Below, piece after piece: positions 392-21,104 of a DNA stretch of 64,000 bases. The notes under the pieces were generated by a model. That model made no database searches and was not told the origin of the DNA. It worked only from the letters and a program-made list of their open reading frames with translations. Within the stretch, counting starts at the first letter, position 1, and each line of letters starts with the position of its first letter. The DNA is taken from positions 248-64,247 of the forward strand of contig WHTH01000017.1 in the NCBI GenBank assembly GCA_009377865.1. The letters are read 5' to 3'. The stretch is from Pseudonocardiaceae bacterium. Its GTDB lineage: Bacteria > Actinomycetota > Actinomycetes > Mycobacteriales > Pseudonocardiaceae. The position numbers and the translations under genes are program-made.

Positions 392-400
392 ACACGCGGA

Positions 401-434: not shown

Positions 435-498
435 GGAGGGCGGGCCGCGGAAACCCACCAGCCGAGAGGCTGGCAGGGCGCCGCGGTCCGACCCCTAC

Positions 499-1164: not shown

Positions 1165-2451
1165 CTACAGTCCGTGCACGTTCGGGAGCCGCCGCGACCG
1201 CAGCGCCCCGTGGGCGTCTAGCGTCAGCCGAGCGGCCGGAAGTAACTCCGAGCCCACGTACTCGGCGTGCGGGGTGTGCAGCAGCACCAGGTCGGCGCTG
1301 GCCAGCAGGCTCCTGTCGAGGTCGGCGACCCGACTGCCCGGCGGGCCCTTGTCGACAGAGCCGAGCAGCGGATCGTGCCAGCGGATGTACGCACCCAGCT
1401 GGTGCAGGCGATCCATGATCGGAAATGCGGAGGACTCGCGGCTGTCTGCCACATCGGGCTTGTATCCGGCTCCGAGCAACACGATCCGGCTGCCCCGCAC
1501 GGGCATGCGTACCGAATTGAGCAGTCCGGTCACCCGGTCAACCACGTGGGTCGACATCCCGATGTTGATCAGCTCGGCCGTCTCCACCAGCCGGAGACAG
1601 CGGCCGCTGCGCCGAGTTTGCCGCGTCAGGTACATCGGATCGACGGGGATGCAGTGACCGCCGACCCCGGGGCCGGGGTGGAAGGGCAGGAACCCGAACG
1701 GCTTGGTAGCCGCGGCGTCGATCGCTTCGCGCAGGTCGATGCTGGTGCCGCTGTACATGGTTGCCAGCTCGTTGACCAGGGCGAGGTTGACGTGTCGGAA
1801 AGTGTTCTCCAGGATCTTTGCCAGCTCCGCCTCTGCGGCTCCAGACACCAGGTGCACCGTGTCGATGAAGGTCCCGTAAAACTCCGCGGCGAACTCACCG
1901 TCGGCCCTGGTCACCCCGCCGACCAACTTGGGGATCCGGGCCAGCGGGTACTCGCGGTTTCCCGGGTCGATCCGCTCGGGTGAGAACACCAGCCGCACGT
2001 CGGTGCCCGCGACCAGGGCCGTGCGTTCCCGCAGCCGGGGCGCGACCACCTCCTCGGTGGTGCCCGGCCAGGTGGTCGATTCCAGCACGACCAGATCGCC
2101 AGGCGCGAGCGTTTCGGCCACAGTGTCCACGGCCGCGAGCACCATGGACAGGTTGGGCACGCCGTCTCGCAGCGGAGTCGGCACGCAAACCAGGTAGACC
2201 TCGCAGGCGGCGAGGTCCCCGGGCTCGCCGGTCACCACGAGGTCACCCCGCTTCAGCGCGCGAGCGAGCGCGTCGTGGTCGAGATCCACCAGGCCGGTGC
2301 GGCCTGCCACGATGTCACACAGGCGGCCGGCGTCGACGTCGAACCCGGCCACGCGGTGCCCTGCCTCGCACATTGCGACCGCGAGGGGCAAGCCGACGTA
2401 GCCGAGGCCGAGCACGGCCACCTTGCGGCGCTTATCACTGCCGGGCAGCAT
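1165..2451 (-). CDS. Nucleotide-sugar 6-dehydrogenase (UDP-glucose/GDP-mannose dehydrogenase family; WecC/WbpA/TviB-like)
   Basis: ORF 1165-2640 was trimmed to the ATG at 2451 (MLPGSDKRRKVAVLGLGYVGLPLAVAM...). It has an N-terminal GxGxxG Rossmann motif and the GPGVGGHCIPVDP catalytic-Cys motif. Confidence 0.8.
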   Translation of the reverse strand: MLPGSDKRRKVAVLGLGYVGLPLAVAMCEAGHRVAGFDVDAGRLCDIVAGRTGLVDLDHDALARALKRGDLVVTGEPGDLAACEVYLVCVPTPLRDGVPNLSMVLAAVDTVAETLAPGDLVVLESTTWPGTTEEVVAPRLRERTALVAGTDVRLVFSPERIDPGNREYPLARIPKLVGGVTRADGEFAAEFYGTFIDTVHLVSGAAEAELAKILENTFRHVNLALVNELATMYSGTSIDLREAIDAAATKPFGFLPFHPGPGVGGHCIPVDPMYLTRQTRRSGRCLRLVETAELINIGMSTHVVDRVTGLLNSVRMPVRGSRIVLLGAGYKPDVADSRESSAFPIMDRLHQLGAYIRWHDPLLGSVDKGPPGSRVADLDRSLLASADLVLLHTPHAEYVGSELLPAARLTLDAHGALRSRRLPNVHGL

Positions 2452-2711
2452 TCGGCGTTCCTTCCCTCTCTGCGCGGGCGGGCGGAACGACACCCAACTC
2501 CGCGGCCAACCTCTCCAGTCCCGCCACCACCTCGGAGGCCAGGCCGAATCCCGCGAGCCGACGCCGACTGCCGGCACTTGTACTTCGGCGCACCCGGGTA
2601 GCGCACAGGACGCGACGGGTCGATCGGGGGCGACTCGCACAGGATGCTCAGCATCCCATCAAGATCGGCTCGAAACACCGCGGGGTCGCGGAACGCAACC
2701 GACGTCGATCA

Positions 2712-3233
2712 TCAGGAAGAAGTGGCCGATGTCGCCGTCGGCCCGCGAGCGAGGCCGCCCGTCCGCGGCATCCAGGCCTGCCCGGCGTCGGACAAGGTGC
2801 CGCACAGCACATCGGCCAGGATGGCCAGGCCGTAGCCCTTGTAGCCGCCCGTCTCCGGCGGGCCGCCGTCGGTCTCACCCTGGACGCACAGCCGGCTCAA
2901 CTCCCGGGCCTCGGCCAGCGTGGCGCTCATAGGCTTCTCCACGACGAACCTCCGGCAACCAAGGCGCACCGCTGCGGCCAAGACGGCGGCGTGGTCGGCC
3001 GGGCCCGGTGCAGACGTGCACCCTCGGCGCCCGGATCGCCTGCCGCGTCGGCCAACCGGTGGGACACGTGGACACCTCGCGGCAGCGTGGGATCCGCCGG
3101 GTCGACACGGATCCACCACGCGTATGTCCCCCGTGGCCAGGCCGAGTGCGACCAGGTCCGGCACGGCGGGCAGGTGGAACGAGCGGACTGCGTGCCCCAT
3201 GCCGACGACGACGTCGCGTGCGCGCACCATCAC
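2712..3233 (-). pseudogene. Chimeric remnant: Gfo/Idh/MocA N-terminal Rossmann part fused in frame to an Ldh_2-family C-terminal fragment
   Basis: The first ~105 aa (VVVGMGHAVRSFHLPAV...RLGCRRFVVEKPMSATLAEARELSRL) resemble the N-termini of the intact genes at 3658-4563 and 7507-9570. The tail, GGYKGYGLAILADVLCGTLSDAG, matches the GAYKGFGLGLMVEVLAALVSGAG motif of the Ldh_2 gene at 5079-6209. At 173 aa it is too short to be either enzyme. Confidence 0.6.
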
Positions 3234-3661
3234 CGCAGGTGTCCCGTCTCGGCGGACAGCGTGCCCTGTTGAAACTCAATCCGCCTGCCGACCGGCAGGG
3301 CGAGGTCGCCGGCGGTGACCAGGCGCTCGGCGCGGAGCACTATGTTGTAGTGGTTGGGAAAGTGGCAGGCGTCAAAACCGGCCACCACGCCGAGCCGGAC
3401 GTCACCGCAGGTGACGGTGTCGCCGACGTCAAGCACCCCCGCGTTGCAGACCTCGACGAACCCGAGGAAGCCGACTCGGTCCAGCCTGCTGCCCGCGGCC
3501 AGCCCGTCCTGGTCGGTGGTGAGCAGTTCATGTATCTCACCCGCGCGCACGCACCTGCTCTGCTCAGCGATGAGCGTCATGCCCCGGTCGGTTCGCTGGT
3601 GAAACAGCAGTTTCACCAGCGTGGCGTGCACGATCACCTTCGACAGGTCCACGCGGCTCAC
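3230..3661 (-). CDS. Hypothetical protein (~143 aa), family not recognised
   Basis: The GTG at 3661 overlaps the upstream stop (GTGA at 3658-3661). The stop at 3230 overlaps the next start. Amino-acid composition is protein-like (VIVHATLVKLLFHQRTDRGMTLIAEQ...), but no diagnostic motif was recognised. Confidence 0.45.
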   Translation of the reverse strand: MSRVDLSKVIVHATLVKLLFHQRTDRGMTLIAEQSRCVRAGEIHELLTTDQDGLAAGSRLDRVGFLGFVEVCNAGVLDVGDTVTCGDVRLGVVAGFDACHFPNHYNIVLRAERLVTAGDLALPVGRRIEFQQGTLSAETGHLR

Positions 3662-4563
3662 GCGGTCTTCCGCCCGGCACGGTAGGTCGCGGCCACCAGT
3701 TCGGTGACCATGCGCCCCGTGTCCTGCCGCCCCCGCCCGTGCAGCGCGGTCGCGACAAAATCGTCGACGACCCCGCGGTACTCGTGCCACAGCGAGGACT
3801 TGAACTGTGCGAAGCCGGCGAGCAGGTCGACACAGTCGCCCGGTCCGTCATCCCACTCAAGCCGGATCGCCTTGTCCTCGCCGTGGAAGGCCCAGTCCAG
3901 CGTGATCGCCGCCGTGCCGTGCGCCTCGGTGTCCAGCTCGATGATCGCCTGCTGGTCGGCCCCCGTGGCGGAGTACTCGAGCAACGCGGCCTGCAGCCGC
4001 AGCGGACCAAGCAGCCACAGCGCAAGGTCGAAGGCGTTGGAGCCGTTGTCGATGACGCAGCCTCCTCCGCAGCGCGCCGGGTCCAGGTACCACGCGTCGC
4101 TGTCGCAGTGCTCCTGGATGAGCTCGCGGTATGTCAGCTCGGCGCGCCGCGGCGGGACGCGGTGGCGGAGGCGGTCGGCCAGCGCGAGCGCATGGTGGTT
4201 GTAGCGGCGGTGGAACGCGGTGAACAGCGTCCGTCCTGTCGCAGCGGCGAGCTCGTCGAGCTCCGCTGCGTCCTCGGGGTCGACGGTCAGCGGCTTTTCG
4301 CAGCACACGTGCTTCCCCGCCAGGAGGGCGTCCCGGCACACGGCGTGGTGCAGGTCGTTGGGCAGGGTGACTACTATGGCGTCGACGTCGCGATCGGCGA
4401 GCACCAGGCGGAGATCCTCGACAAACACCACGCCGGGCGGCACCTGCCGGGCCTTGGCCGGGTCCCGGTCGCACACCACGGCCAGCTCGACCTCTGGATG
4501 CCACACCAGCGCGGGCAGGTAGTACCGCGCGATCGCCCCGACCCCAACGATTCCGACGCGCAT
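3658..4563 (-). CDS. Gfo/Idh/MocA-family NAD(P)-dependent oxidoreductase
   Basis: ORF 3658-5079 was trimmed to the ATG at 4563 (MRVGIVGVGAIARYYLPAL...), which is preceded by the RBS GAGGGAGGGG. It carries the EKP motif (CCEKPLTV), typical of inositol/sugar dehydrogenases. Confidence 0.8.
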   Translation of the reverse strand: MRVGIVGVGAIARYYLPALVWHPEVELAVVCDRDPAKARQVPPGVVFVEDLRLVLADRDVDAIVVTLPNDLHHAVCRDALLAGKHVCCEKPLTVDPEDAAELDELAAATGRTLFTAFHRRYNHHALALADRLRHRVPPRRAELTYRELIQEHCDSDAWYLDPARCGGGCVIDNGSNAFDLALWLLGPLRLQAALLEYSATGADQQAIIELDTEAHGTAAITLDWAFHGEDKAIRLEWDDGPGDCVDLLAGFAQFKSSLWHEYRGVVDDFVATALHGRGRQDTGRMVTELVAATYRAGRKTA

Positions 4564-5078
4564 CCTCGACAGCCCCTCCCTCAAGCGGTCACGTTGATCC
4601 GAGCGTCCCTCAGGGTCGATCACGGCGGCATCCGTCAGATGACGGGGGCGAGACGGCCGGCTGGCGCACAAGACGCACCTGTCGAGTGACGGGTTTCGCT
4701 TCCCCGCCATGACCGGTCCTGCTCGTCCGCTCGGTCTTCGACGCTGCACAGCCGTGCCGTCGAGTAAGTTGGTCTGCATAATCACACGCTCTTCCCCCGG
4801 CTCCCATTCGCTGGCCGACGGGTTTTTCCGAGGCGGCTTCCTCGTCGATGGCGGGCAAGCCAACCCGCCCAACTTCGCCGCAGACCCGCAGGCGTATCTG
4901 GTGCCGAGCCGCTTCGCCGGTGGCGCGGGAGCCTCGGCGCCGCCGGTGCTGCTCAACCTCCCGTTCCCACCCTGGCCGATCCTGCTGCTGATCGCCGAGG
5001 GGCGGGACGTCGGCGAGCGCCGCGAGGTGAGAGCGGGAGCCGGCGCCAGGCCCGACGTCCCGATTCGCAGTGGCGGCA

Positions 5079-6209
5079 TCAGTCCCCACCGATCGGGTCG
5101 GGAAACTCCAGCCCCAACGTGCCGGCGACGTCGCAGAGCTCCTGGTAGAGGGGTTCAGCGAGCGGCACACCGTCGCGGCGGTTGTAGTGTGCTCGCTCCG
5201 CTTCGTGCCAGCCGGGGTAAAGCACCGGTCCGTTGCCTCGGGAGGGGGGGCATGCGAGCAGCGTGTCGAACAGCGCATGCGCGTCGCGGTCGACATCCTC
5301 GGCCGGACGCAGGGCGCCGGGGGCGATCGCGGCAACCAGAAAGCCGATGTCGTCGTCGCGCCCGGATGAGGCACCGTCGCCGGCCAGCGCCTCCCGGCTC
5401 GGGCCCAGTCCTGCTCCGGACACCAGCGCCGCGAGCACCTCCACCATCAGGCCGAGGCCGAACCCCTTGTAAGCGCCCGAGCCGGAGCCGCTGCCTAGCC
5501 AGAGCAGATGTGCGTCACCGCGGTCGAAGGCCGCAGGATCGGTGACAGGATCGCCCCGGTCATCCGCCAACCATCCGTGCGGCGCCTGCCGCCCGGCACG
5601 GGCAGCCTCCCGCACGCGGCCCGCCGGCACCGCCGTCGTGCTCATGTCGAGAACGAACGGGTGGTGGCCTCCGGCAGGTGCGGCAACGCTCAGCGGATTG
5701 GTCCCGAGCATGGTGACCTGCCCGCCCGGCGGTCGCACGATGCGCTGCCTGCCACAGTTGGAGGCGACGATGCCCACCATGCCGCGTCGGACGGCCCGAA
5801 CGGCGTGGTGGCCGGCGCATCCGAAGTGGGTGGCAGCGCGCACCGAGATCATGCCGATGCCGTATGTGGCGGCGCGCTCCACGGCCATGTCCATGGCCTC
5901 GCTGGCGGCCCACAGGCCCAGCGCGCGGTGGGCGTCGACCAGCACGGCGGCTCCCCGGTCGGCGAGCACCTGTGGTTCGGCGCCCGGGTCGACCCGCGCG
6001 TCGTCGAACAACGGGAGGTACAACCCGGTGAGATTGGCCAGGCCATGCGTGCCCTGGCCGACCAGGTCGCTATAGCACAACGCCGTGGCCGCCATTCGGG
6101 CACGGTCGACCTGCATGCCGCGGTCGATGAAGACCGCCGCGACGAACGATAGGAGGTCGTCGTAGTCGACGCGGACATTCTGTTTCCCGGCCGGTCTCGC
6201 CTCCGTCAT
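5079..6209 (-). CDS. Ldh_2-family (malate/L-lactate/ureidoglycolate, Pyr2C/Pip2C reductase type) dehydrogenase
   Basis: Ldh_2-type motifs are present: ...GTHGLANL..., ATHFGCAGHH, MLGTNPLSVAAP, GAYKGFGLGLMVEVL. The start overlaps the upstream stop (ATGA at 6206-6209). Confidence 0.75.
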   Translation of the reverse strand: MTEARPAGKQNVRVDYDDLLSFVAAVFIDRGMQVDRARMAATALCYSDLVGQGTHGLANLTGLYLPLFDDARVDPGAEPQVLADRGAAVLVDAHRALGLWAASEAMDMAVERAATYGIGMISVRAATHFGCAGHHAVRAVRRGMVGIVASNCGRQRIVRPPGGQVTMLGTNPLSVAAPAGGHHPFVLDMSTTAVPAGRVREAARAGRQAPHGWLADDRGDPVTDPAAFDRGDAHLLWLGSGSGSGAYKGFGLGLMVEVLAALVSGAGLGPSREALAGDGASSGRDDDIGFLVAAIAPGALRPAEDVDRDAHALFDTLLACPPSRGNGPVLYPGWHEAERAHYNRRDGVPLAEPLYQELCDVAGTLGLEFPDPIGGD

Positions 6210-7510
6210 GGCGATGCCTTCGCGTGGCGCGCCCGACTGCGGCCAAAGCTGACGAGGAGTCTTGCAACCACGGCGGCGAAGCGCTCCAGCTCCGCCTTAT
6301 CGGCGAACTCCCCGGCAGCGTGCGCGTTGTTGGCGGCAAGGTCACCCGGGCCGCACACGGCAGTGAACACGTCAGGAACCCCGGCCATCCAGATGGCGTC
6401 GCAGGTAAAGGCGAGCTCGTCGTCCGGCCAGCGGGCGAGTCCGACCTCGCACTCCACCAGCCGTTCGCCCCACGGGTCGGCGCAGTTCAGGGTCGGAAGG
6501 CCGCGCTTGAGCCACTGCAGTCGAGTCACCGATGCCGCTTCCGCCGCGGTCAGCGCGAACTCCTGGATCCGGGCGAAGCGCCGGGAGAACTCGAATAGGC
6601 CCTCGCGCAATGCCGCCGCGAATGCGGACTCCAGCTGTCGCCCGGCTGCAGCCGAGGCGTATGACATGTTCACCAGTAGCTCCCCGGTCCCGTAGACCCG
6701 GTTGTGCAGTGGACCGGTGTGCAGCCCTGCGATGCACATCCGTCCGTCGGACACGGCTGGCGCGAGGGCCAGGCCGAGGTGCTGGGCGAGGAAGCCGAGT
6801 AACACGCTGGCGTTGTGGCCGCGTTCGGGCCGGTCGTCGATGGCGTCCTGGCCGTCGATGCGCACCCGGGCCGTCGTCGCGGCCGTCGCGCGGGGCAGGT
6901 ATCGCAGGCCGGTAGGCTCGCAGAAAAGGTTGAGGCGGCCCACGAATCCCCGCTCGACGAGCGGTCGAGTGCCGAACGTGCCCATGGCACCGCCTTCCTC
7001 TCCGGCTACTGCCTGGATGAGGACAGCGACGTCGGCTCCGATGGCTGGCTCGGTCTGGAGGGCGGCACGGACGCCGGCGAGGAGTGCGACGGCGGGTCCT
7101 TTTGCGTCGATCGCTCCGCGCCCGTGAAAACGGTCACCGTCGAAACGGGCCGGCTCCAGGCCTGCAACGGTGTCCAGGTGAACGTTGAACATGACCGTTG
7201 CGGCCCGCGGTAGTGGTGGTCCCAGCCGCAGAACAAGGCTTGGCTGGGTGTCCAGGAAGCTGGGGATCGTGGTGACAGCCCGACGAACGATCAGGGGGAC
7301 GTCGTCGCGTCGGAGCTCCTCCGGCTTCGCCGCGGCGTGGTGGACAGGGATGAACCCCAGATCGACTGCAGCCTCGCGGTAGGACCGCTGCGCTTCCCAC
7401 AGCTGCGCCGGCGGGTCGTCCGATCCGCTCTCCAATGGGCCCGCAGTGGGGGTGCGCAGCAGCTGCATCAGCAGGTCGCGGTCGGCATCCGACAGCTGGG
7501 CCGCGCTCAT
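6206..7510 (-). CDS. M20-family metallohydrolase (ArgE/DapE/amidohydrolase-like)
   Basis: Motifs NVHLDTV, GRGAIDAKG and VAGEEGG are present. The start was set at the ATG at 7510 (MSAAQLSD...), which forms an ATGA overlap with the upstream stop at 7507. The ORF track starts at 7543. Confidence 0.7.
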   Translation of the reverse strand: MSAAQLSDADRDLLMQLLRTPTAGPLESGSDDPPAQLWEAQRSYREAAVDLGFIPVHHAAAKPEELRRDDVPLIVRRAVTTIPSFLDTQPSLVLRLGPPLPRAATVMFNVHLDTVAGLEPARFDGDRFHGRGAIDAKGPAVALLAGVRAALQTEPAIGADVAVLIQAVAGEEGGAMGTFGTRPLVERGFVGRLNLFCEPTGLRYLPRATAATTARVRIDGQDAIDDRPERGHNASVLLGFLAQHLGLALAPAVSDGRMCIAGLHTGPLHNRVYGTGELLVNMSYASAAAGRQLESAFAAALREGLFEFSRRFARIQEFALTAAEAASVTRLQWLKRGLPTLNCADPWGERLVECEVGLARWPDDELAFTCDAIWMAGVPDVFTAVCGPGDLAANNAHAAGEFADKAELERFAAVVARLLVSFGRSRARHAKASP

Positions 7511-9570: not shown

Positions 9571-9624
9571 CCCAACGCCACATGAGCAACGAGCGAGCCG
9601 AGCGACCCACAGTCAAGTCGCATC

Positions 9625-10089
9625 TCATCCGGCCGAGAAGCTCTGGCCTGGCGCGACGTGTGAACCATACCCAGGCTTCACCGTCACCAAGGGCACGGCG
9701 CACCTGTCGTCGGCGTAAAGGACGATGTCGTCGTCCGTGAGGTTGACAATCAAATGCGCAAGCGGGGGCGCGTTGTTGCACCGATTTGGATCATTGAATG
9801 AAGTCAGCGGCGCGAGTTCGTGCTCGAAGATCACAAGCTGCCCGGTCATCGAAGGCGGAGCGGCTTCGCTGGCGGTAACGGATTTCGTAGTCACCTGCGA
9901 CCCACTCCCATTAGTGTCTTCCGCCGCGAAGACGGGAGTCCACGCCGAAGCGCCAGCGAGTGCCACAGTGCCGGCTGAGAGCAGTGCGCTGTATGCTATG
10001 CAGGCACCGAGCCGGTGACTTTTGTGTAGCGAGCGGATGCGGCCGGCTTGCCGCCGGATGGGATTCTGGGCCTTCTCGCGGCGAGTCAT
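9625..10089 (-). CDS. Small secreted protein of unknown function
   Basis: ATG at 10089 with RBS AAAGGGG. A basic N-region plus hydrophobic core (ACIAYSALLSAGTVALAGASA) suggests a signal peptide. The mature part has 2 Cys. Local GC is lower than the surroundings. Confidence 0.55.
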   Translation of the reverse strand: MTRREKAQNPIRRQAGRIRSLHKSHRLGACIAYSALLSAGTVALAGASAWTPVFAAEDTNGSGSQVTTKSVTASEAAPPSMTGQLVIFEHELAPLTSFNDPNRCNNAPPLAHLIVNLTDDDIVLYADDRCAVPLVTVKPGYGSHVAPGQSFSAG

Positions 10090-12806: not shown

Positions 12807-12840
12807 GTGAAGAACCTCCGTGGGGCATGCCGAGCGGTGA

Positions 12841-13308
12841 TCAAGCTGGCGCCATCCGGTTGGATACCCCCAACCTGTTCCATGCGTTGATCGCTGCGAT
12901 GGTCCAGATCAGATGGGAGAGTTCAACTTCGTCGAACGTGCGCGCAGTTTCCTGGTACACCTCATCCGGCACTCCATCGCGATCCAGCACGGTCATCGAC
13001 TCCGTCAGGGCAAGGGCCGCCCGTTCCCGATCGGTGAACAAAGGCGCGCCCCGCCAGACCGGCAACACATCTAGACGTTGGTCGCGCTCGCCCGCCGACC
13101 GCGCTTGCTTGGTGTGCAGATCCGTGCAGAAGGCGCAGCCGTTCATCTGAGAGGCGCGAACCTTGATCAGGTAAGCGATGACGGGGTCAAGTCCGGCCGC
13201 GGCGGTTTGATCGAAAGCGACCATGGCCTCGTAGACGTCGGGGGTGATGGCCGGCGGTGTCACTCGGGCGTTGGACGAGGTGCCGACGTTTTGGTCGATC
13301 TTGGTCAT
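12841..13308 (-). CDS. Carboxymuconolactone decarboxylase / AhpD-like family protein
   Basis: Trimmed to the ATG at 13308 (MTKIDQNV...), which has RBS GGAGGAA. The AhpD-core CxxC motif lies in QMNGCAFCTDLH. Confidence 0.75.
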   Translation of the reverse strand: MTKIDQNVGTSSNARVTPPAITPDVYEAMVAFDQTAAAGLDPVIAYLIKVRASQMNGCAFCTDLHTKQARSAGERDQRLDVLPVWRGAPLFTDRERAALALTESMTVLDRDGVPDEVYQETARTFDEVELSHLIWTIAAINAWNRLGVSNRMAPA

Positions 13309-13372
13309 CCCATTCCTCCGTGGTAGTCGGTTAGCAAGCACAGCCAACGGGGGTAGCCGTCCGAAGTCACGG

Positions 13373-14968
13373 TCAGGTCCAACGGCCTGTGCCGTAGGTC
13401 GCGGAGAGGTCGGCGAGGCATTCCCGCAATTTCAGGCGTCGCACCTTGCCCGTCCCGGTGCGGGGCACCTGGTCCCAGGTGAACACGAGTGGTTCGTCCA
13501 GCTCCGGAAGGTCACGGACGGCCGCCTCCCATGCAGTCTTGTCAAGCGACCCGTCGCCTGTGACGACCACCGGTAGGGGTCGGCGCCCGGGCGTGCCCAA
13601 TACGACGCATTCGAGCACCTGGAGGATGCGGTCGTCGATGACATCCTCGAGCTCGACGCAGCTCATGGCAGGGATGTGGTCGACTTCCCGATCGACGAAA
13701 ACGACATTGCCCAGCCAGGTGCGGGTGCCGATGTCCCCCGTGTTGAACCATGACCCGTCCGCCTTTTCCTCCCAGCGATGCTGTTCCCCGATGTATCCCA
13801 GACAACAGGCTGCAGTCTTGGCCATGATCAGCCCAGGTGTGCTTGGCCTCACCGGAGCAAACGTCTCTGGATCAACGACCCGCAACCTGGTTTTCAGCGG
13901 AATCGGCCTACCTTGGTTTCGTGTCGTCGGATGCCGCTCTGCCGTCTTGGCCACTGATCTGCGGGTAAAGAACCGAAATGTCAGAGGACCCAGCTCGGTC
14001 TGACCCCAGCCCTGCGCCCACAGTGCGCCCCATCGCGTGGAGGCACCCAGGTATGTTCGTACCGTCGTGGGGTGGACCGCATCGTACGTTCCGACATACA
14101 GGCGGACATCGGTGAATGGATTGTCGTCCCTGGCGCTCATCGGCAGCCATTGGATGTACGTTGCCGGGAGGCCCTCGAGGACCGTCGGCGGATGCGCCCG
14201 AAAAAGCTCCTCGGCGGTATCCACATCGTGGTCGGCCACCACGACCACGCTTTGCGGCGCCAGCGAGTAGGTGACAGCGGTCCAACAGAAGGTCCGACCG
14301 TGCGTGAAGGAACTGGCGGTGGCAACAGTGTCGTCGGGTTTGGCGACTATCACCGGCCAGCGGTGGGCCTCGAATGACGCGAGGCGGCGGATGATCGTGT
14401 TTGTCGAGTGCAGCACGAGCTTGGGGACGCCGGTCGTGCCTGACGTGGGAACCACGATCAAGGGTTCGTCCTCGTGGCGGCGGTGCGGCGGTGGTGGCTC
14501 GTGGCCGCGCACGCTGTCGAGGGACAGTGCCCCCCTTGCGGTTCCGTCAATGGTGAGGATCCGTTCGGCGAGGGCTGTCAAGTCCGTGTGCGTGCTCCAT
14601 GCGGCGTCAAGGGTGCCTGCGGTTGTAACGAGCAGGGACGGCGTCAGCCGCTCAAGCATCAGCTGCTGCGTCTCAGCCGGAAGGTGATTGGGGATGAGGC
14701 TGGGTAGGGCGCCGACGCGTATGGCAGCGCAGGCGAGCAGGTCGATGTCCCAATGGTTGTCCTTGGCGATGGCGACGCGGTCGCCCGGGCCCACTCCTGC
14801 AGCCGCGAGCCATCCAGCTGCGCCTCGTACCAGGCTCGCCAATTGTTCGACGTCGTAGGTGGTGCCGTCCTGAGGGGCGATGTCAAACGGTCTACTGAGG
14901 TGAGTGACCGTGCGGGCTCCCGCCTCGGCGCGCTCTTCAAAGAAGGTGCCCATGTCGTGTGTCTTCAC
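13373..14968 (-). CDS. AMP-dependent synthetase/ligase (second adenylate-forming enzyme)
   Basis: Motifs PTSGTTGVPK, ...GWGQTE..., NTGDIG...VVFVDREVD and GTGKVRR. The GTG at 14968 overlaps the upstream stop (GTGA). An alternative ATG lies at 14953. Confidence 0.8.
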   Translation of the reverse strand: MKTHDMGTFFEERAEAGARTVTHLSRPFDIAPQDGTTYDVEQLASLVRGAAGWLAAAGVGPGDRVAIAKDNHWDIDLLACAAIRVGALPSLIPNHLPAETQQLMLERLTPSLLVTTAGTLDAAWSTHTDLTALAERILTIDGTARGALSLDSVRGHEPPPPHRRHEDEPLIVVPTSGTTGVPKLVLHSTNTIIRRLASFEAHRWPVIVAKPDDTVATASSFTHGRTFCWTAVTYSLAPQSVVVVADHDVDTAEELFRAHPPTVLEGLPATYIQWLPMSARDDNPFTDVRLYVGTYDAVHPTTVRTYLGASTRWGALWAQGWGQTELGPLTFRFFTRRSVAKTAERHPTTRNQGRPIPLKTRLRVVDPETFAPVRPSTPGLIMAKTAACCLGYIGEQHRWEEKADGSWFNTGDIGTRTWLGNVVFVDREVDHIPAMSCVELEDVIDDRILQVLECVVLGTPGRRPLPVVVTGDGSLDKTAWEAAVRDLPELDEPLVFTWDQVPRTGTGKVRRLKLRECLADLSATYGTGRWT

Positions 14969-16398
14969 GGTTGGCGCCTCTCTTCAAAAGATTCGAGGTA
15001 AAGCCCGCTTCCTCGCAATCGGCCGCCGGGGGTTATTCGCTTTGGCGTCCGTTGCTTCGAGGACGCGGAGTCTCCGGGCTCTGCACTGTGTGCCTGTATC
15101 CTTGCGGCAGCCAAATCAGCCGATCGAAAGGCACCCTCGCTGGCCGGCTGCAGCGCCACCCAGTCTCCTGCGTACTCGACCGCCCGGGTGGGTCGGCGCA
15201 GAAAGTCCGGCCGGAACCGCAACGCCGCGGGAGTGGCCTCCGGCAGCCCGTAGCGGAAGCGGTGGACAAAGTGCGTGTGCGCGGCCTGACCGAGGCCTGG
15301 CAAGTAACGCTCGGACTGCTCGGTCACGCGTTGCACTACCTCCTGGTCAGAAGCGTCAATTAGCTCGCGGGTGGCCACCGGCCGCGTGAACAACGACACG
15401 AGACCACGGCCCTCGGGCGCTCGGCCGGATGCCTTGTTGTGCTCGACGGCGATGCCGGATAAAAGGTCATCCTCCGCAGCGGGGATGAGCACTCCGTAGG
15501 CGCTCGGCGCGCCCTGGACGGCGAGCCGTCGCTGGAGGCCACAACTGACCCGGAGCATGGGAGTGTAAGTACACGCCCGCAGGTACGGACGCTCGTCCTC
15601 GGGCGCGTTTACATGCAGGTCCAGCGCGACCGGGGCCGGAACGCACAGCACCACAGACCGTGCGGTGAAGGCTCCCTCGCTCGTGACCAGGCGGGCGTTG
15701 TGGGAGGCGGAGGTGACCTCCTGGACCGCACACCGAGGGGTGATATGTACGACCTCTGCCAGCCGGCGTGCCAGCGTATCCATGCCCTCCCGGTACGTCC
15801 GCCAGGTCGCGGTGCTCCTGGTCGCAAGCAGTAGGCAGACCAAGGGCGCCGCAGCCGAGCGCTCCGCCTCCCAGCCGAACAAGCCGCCCACGAGGGGCTG
15901 GAAGACGTAGTCCGACACCTCACGGCAGTAACGTCCGGCCAGCTCGGCGACGGTCATGTCGCCCAGCGGCGTGCTCTCGGGATGGTCGGCTTGGAAGGCC
16001 CGTGCCCGTGACGTTACGAAGGCGTTGAACCGCACCATTTCGAGCCGCGCGCGCAGTGACAGGCCCGCCCCGGTAAACAAGCCGAGGGGGCGTCCGACAT
16101 TGGGATGCGCGCGCCCCTCGCGCCACAGTGCGACGGGGCTGGGAATACGGGGGACGTCCTCGTCGGACAGGCCGACCTGGCGGATCAGCTTCCAGGTAGT
16201 GGCATAGCCGTGAGTTCCGATCATGTCCGCACCCTGGTCGATGAGGTAGCCGTCATGTCGCAGCGTGCGCATGCGCCCCCCGACCTGCTCGGCGGACTCG
16301 AGCACGTCAACCGACCGGCCCGCTTGCTGCAACGCATACGCGACCGCCAGTCCGGACGCTCCCGCGCCGACGACGGCGACGTCGAGATCGCTGGTCAT
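14965..16398 (-). CDS. FAD-dependent oxidoreductase (protoporphyrinogen/amine oxidase-like fold)
   Basis: ORF 14965-16947 was trimmed to the ATG at 16398 (MTSDLDVAVVGAGASGLAVAYAL...VLESAEQVGGRM), which carries the dinucleotide-binding GxGxxG-x17-E motif. The start forms an ATGA overlap with the upstream stop. Confidence 0.75.
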   Translation of the reverse strand: MTSDLDVAVVGAGASGLAVAYALQQAGRSVDVLESAEQVGGRMRTLRHDGYLIDQGADMIGTHGYATTWKLIRQVGLSDEDVPRIPSPVALWREGRAHPNVGRPLGLFTGAGLSLRARLEMVRFNAFVTSRARAFQADHPESTPLGDMTVAELAGRYCREVSDYVFQPLVGGLFGWEAERSAAAPLVCLLLATRSTATWRTYREGMDTLARRLAEVVHITPRCAVQEVTSASHNARLVTSEGAFTARSVVLCVPAPVALDLHVNAPEDERPYLRACTYTPMLRVSCGLQRRLAVQGAPSAYGVLIPAAEDDLLSGIAVEHNKASGRAPEGRGLVSLFTRPVATRELIDASDQEVVQRVTEQSERYLPGLGQAAHTHFVHRFRYGLPEATPAALRFRPDFLRRPTRAVEYAGDWVALQPASEGAFRSADLAAARIQAHSAEPGDSASSKQRTPKRITPGGRLRGSGLYLESFEERRQP

Positions 16399-17372
16399 GA
16401 CACGCCTCCCCCGACCTGGGCATAGACCAGGTTGACGACGACCAACACCACGACGGCCGTCCGGTGCGTCGTGATGCCGAGCTTGCGGGCCACGAGGATG
16501 TCGTGACGGCGCACTCCGATGTCGAGCTGGCGGGCGCGCAGCGCGATGATCGGGAGCATGGCCAGCGGAAACCACCACGGCGCCACATTGACCAAGGGGG
16601 CGCCGACGATGAGCAGAACCTGGAGCAGGGAGACCACAGCGATGGTCACCGCGTTGCCGCGGGCAGAGAGCATGGTCGCTGCGGTCCACCGCCCGACCTT
16701 GGCGTCGCCGGTGACGTCGTTGGTGTTTGAGTAGACGCCGAAGAGTAGAGGCCCCATGCCGAAGACCAGCGCCTGGACGACGACGAAGCCGGGGGCGGCG
16801 CCGGTGATCAGCCCGTACGGTGCCAGCAGCCAGCCCACCCCGACGCCGGCGAGAATGGCCTCGTTGAAGCCGTGGTGGCTGAGCTTCAATCCCCACGACC
16901 ACTGCACGGCCGCTGCCAGGCACACTGCCGTTACGACGACCGCCCAAGTGGGGGGCGCCGGCGCGACGGCGATGGCCGCTGCCGACAGAAACACGGCGGT
17001 GGCCAGCGCGACCCAGCCGAACCGGGTTGCCTCGGCAGGGGTGAGCTCCTGCGTCAACAGCGGCTTTCGCGCCAGGCGACGGGCTGGGGCATCAGGCCCG
17101 TAGTTAACGGCGTCGCTGCCGTCGCGGTAACCGGTCACGTCGTCGAAGGAGACGGTTGCCGCCACGATGCTGATCTCGCTGAGCAGAAACAACGCCAATG
17201 TCGCCAGGACGCGACCGTCAAGGCGGGCCTCGGCGGGCAGCAGCGACCAGACGATGAGCAGGCCCAGGTAGTAGTCGAAGATGTCGAGCTTTGCCAGCCG
17301 CACGTAGGCGGGGGCTTTGCGCCTGAGTGGTGTCGGCACAAGCAGAGCAGGGCGGTAATGATTCTTGATCAC
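16395..17372 (-). CDS. UbiA-family integral-membrane prenyltransferase
   Basis: Trimmed to the GTG at 17372 (GTGA overlap with the upstream stop at 17369). It is very hydrophobic with multiple predicted TM segments. An Asp-rich loop reads SFDDVTGYRDGSDAVNY. Family assignment is by overall resemblance only. Confidence 0.6.
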   Translation of the reverse strand: MIKNHYRPALLVPTPLRRKAPAYVRLAKLDIFDYYLGLLIVWSLLPAEARLDGRVLATLALFLLSEISIVAATVSFDDVTGYRDGSDAVNYGPDAPARRLARKPLLTQELTPAEATRFGWVALATAVFLSAAAIAVAPAPPTWAVVVTAVCLAAAVQWSWGLKLSHHGFNEAILAGVGVGWLLAPYGLITGAAPGFVVVQALVFGMGPLLFGVYSNTNDVTGDAKVGRWTAATMLSARGNAVTIAVVSLLQVLLIVGAPLVNVAPWWFPLAMLPIIALRARQLDIGVRRHDILVARKLGITTHRTAVVVLVVVNLVYAQVGGGVS

Positions 17373-18499
17373 CGACTCTCGTTCCCTCCGGCGAAGTCGC
17401 AGACTGTGTCGGCGATGCGTTCCACCTGGGCGTCGGTCAGGTGGGGATACAGGGGGATGGCGAGGGTGCACCGGCTGGCGTACTCGGCGTGGGGCCATGT
17501 TTGGTCCGGCGCCGCGAATCCTTCGAAGGCGGGCTGTCTTGGCAGGGGCAGCGGGTAGTAGACGTGGCTTTCGATCCCCCTGGCGGCCAGCTGCTGTTGC
17601 AGCTCTTCTCGACGCTCGCTGAGCAGTGAGTAGACGTAGAAGCATCGACCGTTTCGGCCAGGAGGAGGAGCCGTCACGCTGTGCTTCGCGAGGGGCGCGA
17701 AGCGCTCGGTGTAATAGTCGGCGATCCGAGCACGCCGCTCGAGCCGGTCGGCAAGCCCCGGCAGCCGATGAAGCTGGAAGGCGGCGAGAATTTCGTCGAA
17801 GCGGCTGTTGGTGCCGATGCAGTGGTGAAGAAACCGCCGCTGCCCGTCCTGGCCGTGGTTGCGCAACATCCGGACAGTGCCGCCCAAGGCCGGATCGTCA
17901 GTGACCACGACCCCCCCTTCGCCGGCCGTGCCGAAGGTTTTGACCTGGACGAATGAGAAGACGCCTGCCTCTCCCCATCGGCCGGCGGGATGGTTGTCGA
18001 GCACTGCCCCTTGGGCCACCGCCGAGTCCTCCAGCAGCCGCAGCCGATGGCGCTCCGCGATCTGACGCATCCTCGGCATGTCGGCCATGACCGAGAAGAC
18101 GTGTGCAGGCATGATCGCCCGCGTGCGGGGGGTGATCAGGCTTTCGATCTGCTCCGGATCGGCCACCATGGTCCACGGATCGACGTCGGCGAACACCGGT
18201 GTGGCTCCCAGATTCACGACCGTGCTCGCAAGCGGCGCGCACCCGAAGGCCGGTATCACGACCTCGTCCTCGGCCCCGATCCCCATGGCGGTGAGGACGA
18301 GCGTCAGCGCCGTCGTACCGCTTCCGCATGCCACGACGTCGGCCGCCCCCAACCAGGCGCGCAACGCGTCTTCCAATCGGGCGGTGTGCTCGCCCAGTAT
18401 GAACCGCTGCGCCGGGGCGGTGCCGACCTCGTGCACGGTCTCGAGCAGGGCCTCCCGGTCATCCTCGAACACATCAGGAGGGAAGAAGGGAATCGTCAT
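17369..18499 (-). CDS. DegT/DnrJ/EryC1/StrS-family PLP aminotransferase
   Basis: Sequence reads MTIPFFPPDV..., GSGTTALTLVL, VIPAFGCAP, and FSFVQVKTFGTAGEGGVV, which contains the PLP lysine. The start forms an ATGA overlap with the upstream stop at 18496-18499. Confidence 0.85.
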   Translation of the reverse strand: MTIPFFPPDVFEDDREALLETVHEVGTAPAQRFILGEHTARLEDALRAWLGAADVVACGSGTTALTLVLTAMGIGAEDEVVIPAFGCAPLASTVVNLGATPVFADVDPWTMVADPEQIESLITPRTRAIMPAHVFSVMADMPRMRQIAERHRLRLLEDSAVAQGAVLDNHPAGRWGEAGVFSFVQVKTFGTAGEGGVVVTDDPALGGTVRMLRNHGQDGQRRFLHHCIGTNSRFDEILAAFQLHRLPGLADRLERRARIADYYTERFAPLAKHSVTAPPPGRNGRCFYVYSLLSERREELQQQLAARGIESHVYYPLPLPRQPAFEGFAAPDQTWPHAEYASRCTLAIPLYPHLTDAQVERIADTVCDFAGGNESR

Positions 18500-19694
18500 G
18501 GTGACGCCCCGGTGAAGAAGCTGGCGATCAGCTCACACACCCGTTCCAGGTCGTTCAACGACAGGTCGGGATACAGGGGCAGCGCAAGCGTTCGATCGCA
18601 GGCCGATTCTGCGCGTGGAAAGTCCCCTCGGGCGTACCCTAGGTCGGCAAAGCAGGGCTGCAAGTGCAGCGGCGTCGGATAATACGTCTCGGTCTCCACC
18701 CCCCGGTCGGCCAGGAAGGCGGCGAGCTCGTCGCGGTGTTCGACCTCGATGAGATAGACGTAGAAGACCGGGTTCGTCTCCACGTCCCGTGAGACGATCG
18801 TGGGGAGCCGTACCACGCCGGGTACATCGCGCAACCGTTCGGTGTAGGCATTGGCCAATTCAGCCCGGCGGGCGATGTCTTCGCCGAGACGCGTCAGCTT
18901 TGCAGTGAGCACAGCCGCCTGAATGTCGTCCATCTTGCTGTTGACGCCGGCCACGGACGTGCTGGTGGAGATGCGCCGGAAGTCATCCACCGTCGGACCG
19001 AACCGGCCGTGGTGACGGAGCGCCCTCGCCGTCTCCGCAACCTGCGGATCACTGGTGATGATCGCACCGGCGTCTCCGACGGCGCCCAGGGTCTTGCTGG
19101 GGAAGAACGACAGCACTCCCCCGGAACCCAGCAGCCCCGCATGGACCCCGTCCCAACGCATGCCCAGCGCCTCGGCGCTGTCCTCGACGATGTTCAGCCG
19201 GTGTCCCCGCGCCGTCTTCAGCACACCGTGCATGTCGGCCATCTGACAGAACAGGTGCACCGGCATGACCATCCGGGTTCGTTCGGTCACGACGTCCGAC
19301 ACCGACTTCGGGTCGATCCCGTAGGTGACTGGGTCGATGTCGGTGAATACCGGCCGCCCACGGGCAAGAACGACAGACGACGCCGACGCGATGAAGCTGA
19401 AGGCCGGCACGACCACCTCATCGCCCGGGCGCAGGCCGCACGCCCGCAACAACAGCACCAGTGCGTCGGTCCCTGAGTTCACACCCACCACGTGCGCGGC
19501 GCCGGTCCACTCGGCGAGTGCGGCCTCGAGCGCGGCCACCTTGCGCCCATGCGAGTACTTTCCCCGATCCATCACCTCCTTCAGGTGCGAGTGGATGAGC
19601 GGCCACAGCGCCTCGAACGTCGCCGCCTGGGTGAAGAACGGCACCAAATCCCGAGGCGAACGCCCGGATACCTGACCAGCCTGCAAGCCAGCCG
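18496..19694 (-). CDS. DegT/DnrJ/EryC1/StrS-family PLP aminotransferase (second copy)
   Basis: Motifs NSGTDALVLLL, VVPAFSFIA, and LSFFPSKTLGAVGDAGAI, which contains the PLP lysine. The start is uncertain: GTG at 19694 was chosen, GTG at 19641 (VPFFTQ...) is also possible, and the ORF track extends to 19776. Confidence 0.8.
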
Positions 19695-19735
19695 CCCTCC
19701 TCACGTTGCGCCTTGTCCGGATCGGCGGCCTAGTG

Positions 19736-20317
19736 CTAGAGCGGGATGACTTGGACCGTTCCGGTGAAGCCGCCATCTGTCAGGGGGCGCGTTGCGCCGC
19801 AGTTCCCGGTGACACCAGTCGGCACGGCCTCTTGGATAACCTCAGAGCCCTTGAGCGGCCCCTCTACGAACTTTGCCCTCACAGTCGGCACGGCCCCATA
19901 GGTCACAGTTTCCCAGCTGACGACTGACTTGTCGCCGTTGTCCCAAACCACGTCCACTGTTCCATGCGCCTCCATGACACCGGGGGCGGCGGTGCATCCC
20001 AGCACCCCGGTTCCCTCGATCTTGCCGGTCGCGCCCTGGTATGGGATTCCGGTCGCAGAAGTGCAAGGGGTTGACGGCGACAGTGCCGTCCCTACTTGCA
20101 GGATGCCCGATATGGTCTGGCGTTGAGGGGTAGACGTCAGGCCTGGCTCGAAGTGCAGAGTCGCCGCGTCGGGGCATTCGAGGTCGGCGCCCGTGGTCGG
20201 CTGACCTGAAGCTTGCTGTGGGACAGCCACGACTGCCAGCAGTAGAAGGAACACTGTTAATAGCAGCCACCTCCGGCGATGCAACAAGGCCTGCGGACGG
20301 ACGGTGTGTCGTGACAT
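19736..20317 (-). CDS. Secreted protein of unknown function
   Basis: ATG at 20317 with strong RBS AAAGGAG. The signal peptide reads RRRWLLLTVFLLLLAVVAVPQQASG. The mature part contains 5 Cys. No family was recognised. Confidence 0.6.
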   Translation of the reverse strand: MSRHTVRPQALLHRRRWLLLTVFLLLLAVVAVPQQASGQPTTGADLECPDAATLHFEPGLTSTPQRQTISGILQVGTALSPSTPCTSATGIPYQGATGKIEGTGVLGCTAAPGVMEAHGTVDVVWDNGDKSVVSWETVTYGAVPTVRAKFVEGPLKGSEVIQEAVPTGVTGNCGATRPLTDGGFTGTVQVIPL

Positions 20318-20426
20318 CCTATCTCCTTTCCGGTTCTATCGCGCTGACGGACCTCTAGCCAAGATGGGGACGTGGTCGCCAGGAATTCGTTGCTGGTCGG
20401 TTGATGCAAGCGGCGTCAGGATCTGC

Positions 20427-21104
20427 TTAGTAATCACCAATGCCAGTAACGCCGTCTTCGGACGCTTCCCTCTCAATCGTGTGCGCTTGTCCTGTGGCTT
20501 TCAGCGGGCCGTAAGCCTCGCTGTGGGTGTCGTCGCGGGTGACCATCGACGAGCTGTACGTTTGCCCGACGGGTGCGGTGGCTCCGCTAAATGCTGCACC
20601 TACGGGTGGTTTCGGCTGCTCGCTGGTGGGCGGAGCAACGAAGGTTGCCTCCGTGACCGTCGTGGGAAGCACGCCGTCGGCCCGGGAGGAGTTGGTCGTC
20701 CCCGTGGGATCCGAAGCGGAGTGTGTCTCGGAATCGCCGAGCAGGCCAAAGCCGACAATGCAGGCGCCGGTGACGCTCTGCGGGGAAAGGCTTCGAGTAT
20801 CACTGCTCGAAAGGACGGCGAGCCCTGGGATCCCGGCTTTCATATCGATGCCGGTGGACAGTTGGGCTGCCTGTGGTTGCATCAGGCAGGTGGCGACCCC
20901 AAGTGGAGTTCGGAATCCGGTATCGACACATGCCCCTGAGGCGCGTGCGGTCGGGGTGGCGGAGCCGTCGTCGCCCCCGGCAAACGCGGCCGGGCTGGTG
21001 GCCAAGAACCCGAACGAGGTCATCGCCAGGGCGGCCGCCCCGCGGGCGCCCTGGCTCGCCAAGGTGCTGGTCACAGCGGGCTTGGCATGCTTCGCCACAG
21101 TCAT
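20427..21104 (-). CDS. Secreted Ser/Thr/Ala-rich protein of unknown function
   Basis: ATG at 21104 with RBS GAGAGGA. The N-terminal signal-like segment reads AAALAMTSFGFLATSPAAFAGG. No family was recognised. Confidence 0.5.
   Translation of the reverse strand: MTVAKHAKPAVTSTLASQGARGAAALAMTSFGFLATSPAAFAGGDDGSATPTARASGACVDTGFRTPLGVATCLMQPQAAQLSTGIDMKAGIPGLAVLSSSDTRSLSPQSVTGACIVGFGLLGDSETHSASDPTGTTNSSRADGVLPTTVTEATFVAPPTSEQPKPPVGAAFSGATAPVGQTYSSSMVTRDDTHSEAYGPLKATGQAHTIEREASEDGVTGIGDY

Follow-up and report, generated by a model that had tools for sequence, protein, structure and literature searches.

Contig WHTH01000017.1 of a Pseudonocardiaceae bacterium (GenBank assembly GCA_009377865.1) carries an island of about 20 kb in which sugar-modifying enzymes stand beside a membrane prenyltransferase and two adenylating ligases, and the locus raises the question of what such a gene set makes. 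We analyzed it within positions 248 to 64,247 of the contig, a stretch of 64,000 nucleotides that we call the window, and assigned the window genes from an open reading frame (ORF) listing, codon-position GC and Pfam. An earlier interpretation made from the nucleotide sequence alone (the sequence-only reading) had described an unusual island of tailoring genes only. We find instead that the region (1165–21104) is a rearranged mosaic copy of an uncharacterized biosynthetic cluster family that is widespread in actinomycetes and spread across ~30 genera, i.e., an orphan cluster of unusual and modular composition. As to its product, we slightly favor a prenylated, N-acylated and methylated diamino sugar, predicted from the relationships of its enzymes and encoded on a mosaic copy of this widespread family.

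The sequence-only reading had counted about 17 genes with one on the plus strand; indeed, a methyltransferase gene is the sole plus-strand member among the 17 ORFs, and the others are on the minus strand. Its domain list, including UbiA, DegT and the TIM barrel, was upheld call by call with Pfam, and its view that the island is biosynthetic is supported. It had also noted the absence of polyketide synthase (PKS), nonribosomal peptide synthetase (NRPS), carrier protein, glycosyltransferase and cyclase genes, and none of these domains was found among the island ORFs with Pfam.

A cluster family of two modules

The prenyltransferase, a member of the UbiA superfamily, has more than 120 homologues at 53–75% identity, and when one genome per species was scanned, 351 species genomes contained UbiA relatives. 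Our set of 84 loci rests on the best 80 of these 351 matches, which were fetched, and on two loci from look-ups. Genes were called by a cumulative GC3-GC2 score and then clustered into families; flanks of 10 kb truncate some of the clusters. UbiA is present in all 84 loci, a flavoenzyme in 82, a divergent adenylating ligase (ligase B) in 79, DegT aminotransferases in 72 and a methyltransferase in 70. The Gfo/Idh/MocA oxidoreductase GfoA with its TIM barrel (63 loci), DUF6917 (59), an Ldh_2 dehydrogenase (58), an M20 amidohydrolase (58) and a second oxidoreductase, GfoB (57), follow, as do a CoA-transferase (57), a second adenylating enzyme (ligase A, 55), an EF-hand protein (53) and an AhpD-like protein (38).

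These families recur in conserved order in ~30 actinomycete genera, among them Nocardiopsis, Streptomonospora, Saccharothrix, Actinosynnema, Actinokineospora, Lentzea, Saccharopolyspora, Actinomadura, Streptosporangium, Nonomuraea, Kitasatospora, Streptacidiphilus and some Streptomyces. Usually, the dehydrogenase and EF-hand genes precede an operon of DUF6917, GfoB, Ldh_2, M20, TIM barrel and GfoA, and a divergent operon holds DegT, DegT, UbiA, flavoenzyme, ligase B, methyltransferase, CoA-transferase, ligase A and AhpD. Chance juxtaposition, a doubt raised by the sequence-only reading, fails decisively against genes that recur as neighbors in 84 loci. The same reading had not recognized the gene combination as a described cluster, and we likewise found no description of the cluster, of DUF6917 or of the cassette combination in the literature. 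None of the curated families describes the cluster, and RefSeq protein names are generic.

The cluster family is built of two modules. Module 1 comprises a nucleotide-sugar 6-dehydrogenase, the two Gfo/Idh/MocA proteins, the TIM barrel of metal-dependent epimerase/isomerase type, two DegT proteins, M20, Ldh_2 and DUF6917. Module 2 comprises UbiA, the flavoenzyme, which is PPOX-like, ligase B, the methyltransferase, a family III CoA-transferase, ligase A and the AhpD-like protein. Nocardia anaemiae and a JGI contig carry a nine-gene cassette that has no UbiA, flavoenzyme or ligase B, and so does Roseospira, an alphaproteobacterium. In this UbiA-less layout (type ii; the UbiA-bearing clusters are type i) the operon is colinear, in the order GfoB, DUF6917, GfoA, DegT, DegT, TIM barrel, M20 and Ldh_2. 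The dehydrogenase gene follows directly in both actinomycete contexts and lies a few kb off on the opposite strand in Roseospira. The UbiA-less cassettes adjoin ATP-grasp ligases, or SAICAR-synthase-like (PurC-like) and adenylosuccinate-synthase-like (PurA-like) ligases. Because the colinear operon also occurs without UbiA beside other ligases, the cassette is, as judged from gene content, a portable sub-pathway whose product would be passed to differing amide-forming enzymes.

Natural fusions tie the cassette enzymes together, i.e., TIM-M20 and GfoA-Ldh_2 fusions in other genomes (P0251, P0255, P0274, P0263). The GfoA-TIM fusion of the window recurs in seven further proteins (P0241–P0247) and is hence no assembly artefact. 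The logic that the sequence-only reading had outlined, namely to oxidize, transaminate twice, N-acylate and prenylate, gains support from these fusions and from the conserved co-occurrence in 84 loci.

A third arrangement lies on a Streptomyces linear plasmid. It holds DegT, DegT, methyltransferase, UbiA (43% identity), ligase B (41%) and dehydrogenase (48%), and additionally a short-chain dehydrogenase/reductase (SDR), a monooxygenase, an MMPL transporter, AfsA homologues and a SARP regulator; Gfo, TIM, M20, Ldh_2 and DUF6917 are missing from it. The SDR could be assigned neither to the sugar 4,6-dehydratases nor to the decarboxylases, and the substrate is not settled by it.

Cassette enzymes and the source of the sugar

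On which substrate would module 1 act? The sequence-only reading had started from myo-inositol, which we regard as less likely than a nucleotide sugar, judging from three lines of comparison: the dehydrogenase is found in all architectures, its best models are of the N-acetylhexosamine (HexNAc) type, and the DegT proteins are nearer to enzymes of nucleoside diphosphate (NDP) sugars. None of the proteins reaches an NCBIfam equivalog cutoff.

The nucleotide-sugar 6-dehydrogenase of HexNAc type (1165–2451, minus strand; Pfam UDPG_MGDP_dh N-terminal, central and C-terminal domains), which in the window belongs to a type-ii cassette remnant, matches TIGR03026 at 1.9e-107. UDP-ManNAc and UDP-GlcNAc dehydrogenase models score 1e-69 to 1e-57, compared with 1e-39 or weaker for UDP-Glc dehydrogenase models. 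The gene occurs in every architecture seen, type i, type ii and plasmid, and in the N. anaemiae locus (L084) its stop/start codons overlap with the cassette. Among solved structures, DegT-1 (18496–19686, minus strand; Pfam 4e-106) matches DesV (8e-73), WbpE (1e-61) and QdtB, and DegT-2 (17369–18499, minus strand; Pfam 9.1e-94) matches 7b0d, DesV, perosamine synthases and WbpE (7e-55). Both sugar aminotransferases thus find NDP-sugar aminotransferases (DesV, WbpE, QdtB, perosamine synthases) at 1e-55 to 1e-73 and 2-deoxy-scyllo-inosose aminotransferases at 1e-37 to 1e-40, i.e., 20–30 orders of magnitude worse. The lysine for pyridoxal phosphate (PLP) is kept in both, as read from the sequence.

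The main rival to a nucleotide-sugar route, which we consider unlikely, starts from inositol: the Gfo proteins would be inositol dehydrogenases, the DegT proteins inosose aminotransferases, and the resulting diaminocyclitol would be prenylated and N-acylated. Gfo and TIM barrel are a classic inositol pairing (IolG with IolE or IolI; MocA with MocC), and the pairing is repeated here. GfoB (3658–4584, minus strand; Pfam GFO_IDH_MocA 1.4e-27 and C3 domain), an NAD-dependent sugar oxidoreductase of type-ii origin, matches inositol 2-dehydrogenase models as well as WbpB; against the IolG model it scores 76 bits with a cutoff of 355. The top DegT match 7b0d carries the label Gln-scyllo-inositol transaminase. 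GfoA is fused to the xylose-isomerase-like TIM barrel of keto-sugar epimerase/isomerase type (7507–9567, minus strand; Pfam AP_endonuc_2 5e-28, GFO_IDH_MocA 7.5e-05). A sequence search of the PDB with the whole fusion returned nothing, and a profile of the TIM domain found UlaE, D-tagatose 3-epimerases, IolI (2e-6), IolE (9e-6) and AsbF. Its invariant Glu, Asp, His and Glu we take to correspond to the four metal-binding residues of keto-sugar epimerases. A cyclitol origin keeps some probability, as the TIM barrel is similar to keto-sugar and inosose epimerases alike. Against it, UlaE and the tagatose epimerases outscore IolI and IolE for this profile, and the inosose aminotransferases (1e-37 to 1e-40) trail the NDP-sugar enzymes (1e-60 to 1e-73). 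Moreover, the nucleotide-sugar dehydrogenase is integral to the cassette, the plasmid variant keeps both DegT genes, UbiA, ligase B and the dehydrogenase without Gfo or TIM, and inositol-phosphate synthase, phosphatase and cyclase genes occur in no locus.

Comparison with characterized aminocyclitol pathways leads in the same direction. Entry into spectinomycin, streptomycin and hygromycin A biosynthesis, and the rhizopine mos/moc system, likewise use repeated Gfo oxidation followed by DegT transamination, and a TIM barrel of the IolE/IolI/MocC superfamily. In contrast to these pathways, the cluster is without cyclitol supply or glycosyltransferases, both in the window and among the conserved families of the 84 loci; a nucleotide-sugar dehydrogenase is integral to it, and its DegT proteins are much nearer to NDP-sugar aminotransferases.

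With a nucleotide sugar as the preferred start, module 1 may work as follows. A sugar of UDP-N-acetylhexosamine type would be oxidized to the uronic acid by the dehydrogenase. In two rounds, NAD-dependent oxidation to a ketone by a Gfo protein would precede PLP-dependent transamination by a DegT protein, giving two amines, and the TIM barrel would epimerize next to the ketone. The M20 protein (6206–7510, minus strand; Pfam 1.6e-15), an ArgE/DapE-like amidohydrolase whose NCBIfam ArgE/DapE subfamily matches are all below cutoff, is a probable N-deacylase and would remove an N-acyl group. The product of module 1 would be a diamino sugar, probably a uronic acid. The Ldh_2-family dehydrogenase (5079–6209, minus strand; Pfam 6.7e-99; 77% identity to L007) and DUF6917 (3230–3661, minus strand; Pfam 2.9e-49) complete the cassette. 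DUF6917, absent from the sequence-only reading, is a small all-beta protein with a confident predicted structure (AF2 pLDDT 92.5). Foldseek found no meaningful PDB fold match for this model, and the invariant Cys, His, Asp and Glu suggest a metal site.

The nearest known logic is the WbpA/WbpB/WbpE (WlbA/WlbC, GnnA/GnnB) route to UDP-2-acetamido-3-amino-2,3-dideoxy-glucuronic acid. At family level only, the two have in common a UDP-HexNAc 6-dehydrogenase, a Gfo 3-dehydrogenase and a DegT 3-aminotransferase. Of the solved structures, WbpE ranks near the top for both DegT proteins (1e-61, 7e-55), and WbpB is among the matches of GfoB. In contrast to the Wbp route, neither a WbpD-type acetyltransferase nor a WbpI epimerase is found in the island or the conserved gene set. 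The cluster adds a second Gfo/DegT pair, the TIM barrel, M20, Ldh_2 and DUF6917, and its product is not delivered to a polysaccharide by glycosyltransferases.

Gfo, TIM-barrel, M20 and Ldh_2 families are also common in sugar and opine catabolism, as weak NCBIfam matches reflect, and the genes might then form a catabolic island of moc/iol type for an amino sugar, an aminocyclitol or an opine-like compound. We regard this as very improbable: transporter, kinase and regulator are missing, the island encodes two adenylating ligases and a methyltransferase besides its membrane prenyltransferase, and relatives come with genes for isoprenoid supply, with a halogenase and with regulators of the SARP and AfsA types.

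Prenylation, acylation and the proposed product

The prenyltransferase gene (16395–17372, minus strand; Pfam UbiA 5.9e-10) encodes a divergent UbiA-superfamily membrane protein that passes PF01040 with 39.3 bits (cutoff 34.2). Its Asp-rich motifs D77 D78 ... D84 ... D87 and N216 ... D219 ... D223 are invariant in 14 sequences, the first with unusual spacing. It fits no characterized subfamily among MenA, UbiA/COQ2, heme O synthase, DGGGP synthase and DPPR synthase: the sole NCBIfam match is MenA (9e-4, 18 bits compared with a cutoff of 277), and the best PDB match of the profile is UBIAD1 with an E value of 0.18. The adjoining gene (14965–16398, minus strand; Pfam Amino_oxidase 4.9e-41) encodes an amine-oxidase-fold flavoprotein to which the PPOX and HpnE (both below cutoff) and CrtI models of NCBIfam are nearest; in the PDB it matches PPOX at 1e-13.

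Ligase B (13373–14968, minus strand; Pfam AMP-binding 1.9e-43), a divergent adenylate-forming enzyme, always adjoins UbiA. Its best PDB match, a long-chain fatty acyl-CoA synthetase, reaches only 2.6e-19, and it is far from any solved enzyme. Ligase A (11085–12806, minus strand; Pfam AMP-binding and C-terminal domain), an aryl-acid-type adenylating enzyme or amide bond synthetase, has McbA (6sq8/6h1b, 7e-49) as its best solved relative, ahead of salicylate-AMP and DHB-AMP ligases. The N-acylation by stand-alone ligases that the sequence-only reading had envisaged is consistent with this match. Like McbA, ligase A stands alone, with no carrier or condensation partner in the locus; unlike McbA, it is paired with a family III CoA-transferase in most relatives, which suggests CoA chemistry instead. 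Next to the ligase genes lie those for an AhpD/CMD-family protein with the CxxC motif CAFC (12841–13308, minus strand; Pfam CMD 2.9e-18) and for a class I S-adenosylmethionine methyltransferase (10250–11161, plus strand; Pfam Methyltransf_11/12/23/25). A small putative secreted protein, o154 (family c14; 9625–10089, minus strand), has a signal-like N-terminus and no Pfam match, and its family is found in 30 of the 84 loci.

That the product is prenylated, as had been suggested before, is supported by relatives with isoprenoid-supply genes or an MMPL exporter. The cluster of Streptomyces antibioticus includes DXS, IspG and IspH together with a polyprenyl synthase, and a polyprenyl synthase gene also lies beside the Actinokineospora clusters. 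The closest Pseudonocardiaceae metagenome-assembled genomes (MAGs; L005, L007, L008, L009, L011) carry a flavin halogenase-like gene (Pfam Trp_halogenase; GWxWxIP and FxxPxxSG motifs in the sequence) between flavoenzyme and ligase B. The whole window was searched for a halogenase and likewise for CoA-transferase, EF-hand, polyprenyl synthase, encapsulin and ALO genes, and none was found.

We propose that the ligases would transfer acyl groups straight from acyl adenylates to the free amines, with an aryl-type acid added by ligase A and a lipid-like acid by ligase B. The methyltransferase would add a methyl group and UbiA would attach an isoprenoid chain, so that the final product would be a membrane-associated amino-glycolipid or meroterpenoid.

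Two known systems share the prenyltransferase family. PlaT3/AtoD-type UbiA enzymes of actinomycete terpenoid clusters (phenalinolactone, atolypene; PMC11317874) use a non-aromatic acceptor. The likeness lies in cluster context, i.e., a membrane UbiA with methylerythritol phosphate (MEP) pathway genes, a polyprenyl synthase and a flavoenzyme, as in the S. antibioticus locus. In contrast to PlaT3/AtoD clusters, a terpene cyclase is missing and the partner genes are entirely different. The ebo cluster, which the sequence-only reading had brought in, is a proposed pathway to a prenylated cyclitol or aromatic compound. It comprises eboA, TatD (eboB), UbiA (eboC), a DHQ-synthase-like cyclase (eboD), a TIM barrel (eboE) and eboF (PMC9235831). 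Of that resemblance, UbiA and the xylose-isomerase-like TIM barrel stand as the only two Pfam families in common, and the rest of the ebo gene set is absent. We reject an ebo identity, as EboA, TatD (EboB), the EboD cyclase and EboF are all missing from the island ORFs.

A further alternative places the genes in cell-envelope modification, as a pathway akin to primary metabolism, with a polyprenyl-phosphate-linked amino sugar made in a manner analogous to the Ara4N (arn) or decaprenyl-phospho-arabinose pathways and UbiA acting like a DPPR synthase on polyprenyl phosphate. Ugd, ArnB and ArnD of the arn pathway are parallels to dehydrogenase, DegT and deacylase. The UbiA superfamily contains decaprenyl-phosphate phosphoribosyltransferase, a FAD_binding_4/ALO gene (DprE1-like fold) is adjacent in Saccharothrix and Actinosynnema, and the plasmid variant has an MMPL transporter. 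We nevertheless consider the envelope route decidedly unlikely. The spread is patchy, with 351 species genomes and only scattered Streptomyces, the accessory genes vary (halogenase, extra methyltransferases, monooxygenases), and the plasmid variant comes with AfsA and SARP regulators. Moreover, neither a GT-C enzyme nor another transferase for sugar delivery to a polymer is present, such pathways offer no place for the two adenylating ligases, and UbiA matches no DPPR-synthase model.

Several points weigh against the prenylated diamino sugar itself. The cluster family is tied to no known molecule. We know of no xylose-isomerase-like TIM barrel that acts on nucleotide sugars; the nearest solved relatives of this one use free or phosphorylated keto-sugars and inososes. 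To our knowledge, no UbiA enzyme prenylates a sugar, and the present UbiA clade is too remote in sequence from characterized members to infer the acceptor. Behind the locus counts stand gene calls of our own and the best 80 among 351 matches, and the dehydrogenase lies inside the 10 kb flanks in only 29 of the 84 loci. The window is without acyltransferase, carrier protein and exporter; searched as a whole, it also lacks a CoA-transferase gene, which 57 of the 84 loci have, and an EF-hand gene, which 53 have. Because these two are lost, and GfoB and DUF6917 come from a different cassette, the window copy may be inactive.

If the prenylated diamino sugar is correct, several hundred actinomycete species carry an unassigned route to a lipid-tailed, acylated diamino sugar, among them cultured Nocardiopsis, Saccharothrix, Actinomadura, Streptosporangium, Kitasatospora and Streptomyces, and the separable cassette is a reusable route to a diamino sugar building block. 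Genome mining centered on PKS and NRPS genes would probably miss such a chemotype. The cassette also brings DUF6917, which has no structural relative, and the acceptor of the UbiA clade is probably non-aromatic. Since intact clusters exist in culturable type strains, the reading is directly testable. Intact type-i clusters are those of, e.g., Saccharothrix ecbatanensis (JACHMO010000001, 2.417–2.438 Mb), Streptomonospora litoralis (CP036455, 4.367–4.388 Mb) and Nocardiopsis alba DSM 43377. A bolder extension, which we put forward tentatively and with more doubt than confidence, is that the cassette is an unrecognized, horizontally moving diamino sugar-acid route in at least three or four cluster classes of Actinomycetota and Alphaproteobacteria. 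DUF6917 would then be a metalloenzyme with a fold outside the PDB, and the UbiA clade the first of its superfamily to alkylate an amino sugar, leading to a new class of actinomycete amino-glycolipids or meroterpenoids.

Two kinds of neighboring genes were seen at relatives of the cluster. In L013, L014, L023–L025, L040, L059 and L074, from several unrelated genera and in varied arrangements, the immediate neighbors of UbiA clusters are family-2 encapsulin shell genes that include a cNMP-binding domain; a terpene synthase of two domains or else a polyprenyl synthase accompanies them. This may be a link to isoprenoid metabolism or merely a common neighborhood. At the edge of the Saccharothrix/Actinosynnema clusters (L003, L017, L022, L053, L055, L065) lies a FAD_binding_4/ALO oxidase gene of gulonolactone-oxidase or DprE1-type fold.

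A mosaic copy between mobile-element remnants

The window copy joins a type-i cluster (5079–19686) to the remnant of a second cassette (1165–4584), as seen from breaks in protein identity and from a deletion scar. Ldh_2, M20, TIM barrel, DegT proteins, UbiA and ligases are 65–79% identical to proteins of type-i Pseudonocardiaceae MAGs. The dehydrogenase is 64% identical to that of the N. anaemiae cassette compared with 43–52% for type-i loci, and GfoB 53% compared with 41–49%. DUF6917 is ~59% identical to the N. anaemiae protein, 48–60% to those of UbiA clusters and 81% to that of the UbiA-less cassette on the JGI contig. Ldh_2 and M20 follow the opposite trend, with 36% and 47% identity to N. 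anaemiae and up to 77% and up to 78% to type-i proteins. A spacer of ~490 bp (4585–5078), non-coding-looking and coinciding with a low-complexity N-terminal extension without domain, marks the type-i/type-ii junction at the identity break between Ldh_2 and GfoB.

At 2712–3233 the sequence-only reading had placed a third Gfo/Idh/MocA unit. What lies there is not a gene but a pseudogene fragment (GfoA'::Ldh_2', 2784–3212, minus strand), in which tblastn queries from every member of the GfoA and Ldh_2 families, together with Pfam fragments, revealed GfoA residues ~1–122 joined to Ldh_2 residues ~231–265. It sits between DUF6917 and dehydrogenase. The type-ii gene order predicts exactly such a junction after the loss of DegT, DegT, TIM barrel and M20, and we hence read the pseudogene, from this order, as the scar of an internal deletion in the second cassette. 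Both operons of the window are colinear on one strand. The methyltransferase gene is inverted compared with all other loci, where it is co-directional with the ligases; it converges with ligase A, and their 3' ends overlap by 77 nt (11085–11161). Its best relative is from Salinactinospora (68% identity). The window copy is a clear case of cluster evolution by recombination between two cassette versions.

Is this copy still functional? It could be a relic, i.e., the family is real and the window copy a decaying, non-functional product of recombination and mobile elements, which is compatible with a prenylated diamino sugar as the product of the family. The pseudogene scar, the loss of CoA-transferase and EF-hand, the inverted methyltransferase with its 77-nt overlap, the parts from different lineages and the flanking mobile elements, which are fragments only, speak for it. 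On the other side, all 15 of the 15 retained pathway ORFs are full length without frameshift, or near full length as measured against relatives, with intact codon-position GC bias. Catalytic motifs are kept (UbiA Asp motifs, DegT Lys, adenylation motifs, CxxC), CoA-transferase and ligase A are also missing from several otherwise intact relatives, and the GfoA-TIM fusion recurs. We judge the relic somewhat unlikely.

The island sits between decayed mobile elements, beside core chromosomal genes; both brackets that the sequence-only reading had drawn were found, each made of pieces with none intact. On the left lie a group II intron 3' remnant (2–498, plus strand; maturase C-terminal fragment 2–391, Pfam GIIM 4.8e-19; RNA domains V–VI 399–498, Rfam RF00029 51.7 bits) and an rve_3 integrase-core transposase fragment (725–1006, plus strand; Pfam rve_3 9.9e-09). 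On the right lies debris of several elements (21898–24643, plus strand), i.e., IS110, DDE_Tnp_1_4, DUF6431/HTH_23 and AAA_22 fragments. Large Rhodococcus plasmids carry genes named "AAA family ATPase" to which the AAA_22 fragment (24417–24608) is 75–85% identical in DNA sequence; this fragment gave the only plasmid match of the first 25 kb (megablast against plasmids). A repeat search at the island edges returned only chance matches and no bracketing direct repeats, the Rfam scan gave no tRNA match, and in place of an intact integrase only transposase fragments occur.

The window is high-GC actinomycete DNA, and 26–64 kb encodes core functions, e.g., aconitase, ferrochelatase, MoxR and NlpC/P60. 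A compositional check of 1.1–21.1 kb, suggested by the sequence-only reading, gave a divided result. From 7.5 to 22.5 kb the deviation is modest, with a GC content of 0.66 for 7.5–21.1 kb (0.696 for 26–64 kb) and a tetranucleotide distance of 0.20–0.25 (0.10–0.14 for 26–64 kb), whereas 1.1–7.5 kb resembles the host. An identical contig is present in the Logan assembly of SRR10173838.

At the right end of the island, two ORFs (19736–20317 and 20427–21104, minus strand) have signal-like N-termini; as neither of them gave a Pfam match or has an equivalent among the related loci, they probably lie outside the pathway. Directly after the mobile-element debris follows a gene for a TetR regulator with an MftR-type C-terminal domain (24663–25643). 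Three MetE-like ORFs (Meth_synt_2 catalytic domain) were seen at 26215–27429, 27413–28675 and 62224–63351, the first two adjacent and within a stretch of likewise deviating composition (25–30 kb). A GC-rich palindrome lies within orf225 (21011–21058), and a 33-nt imperfect inverted repeat with a 7-nt spacer (22347–22419) lies beside the IS fragments.

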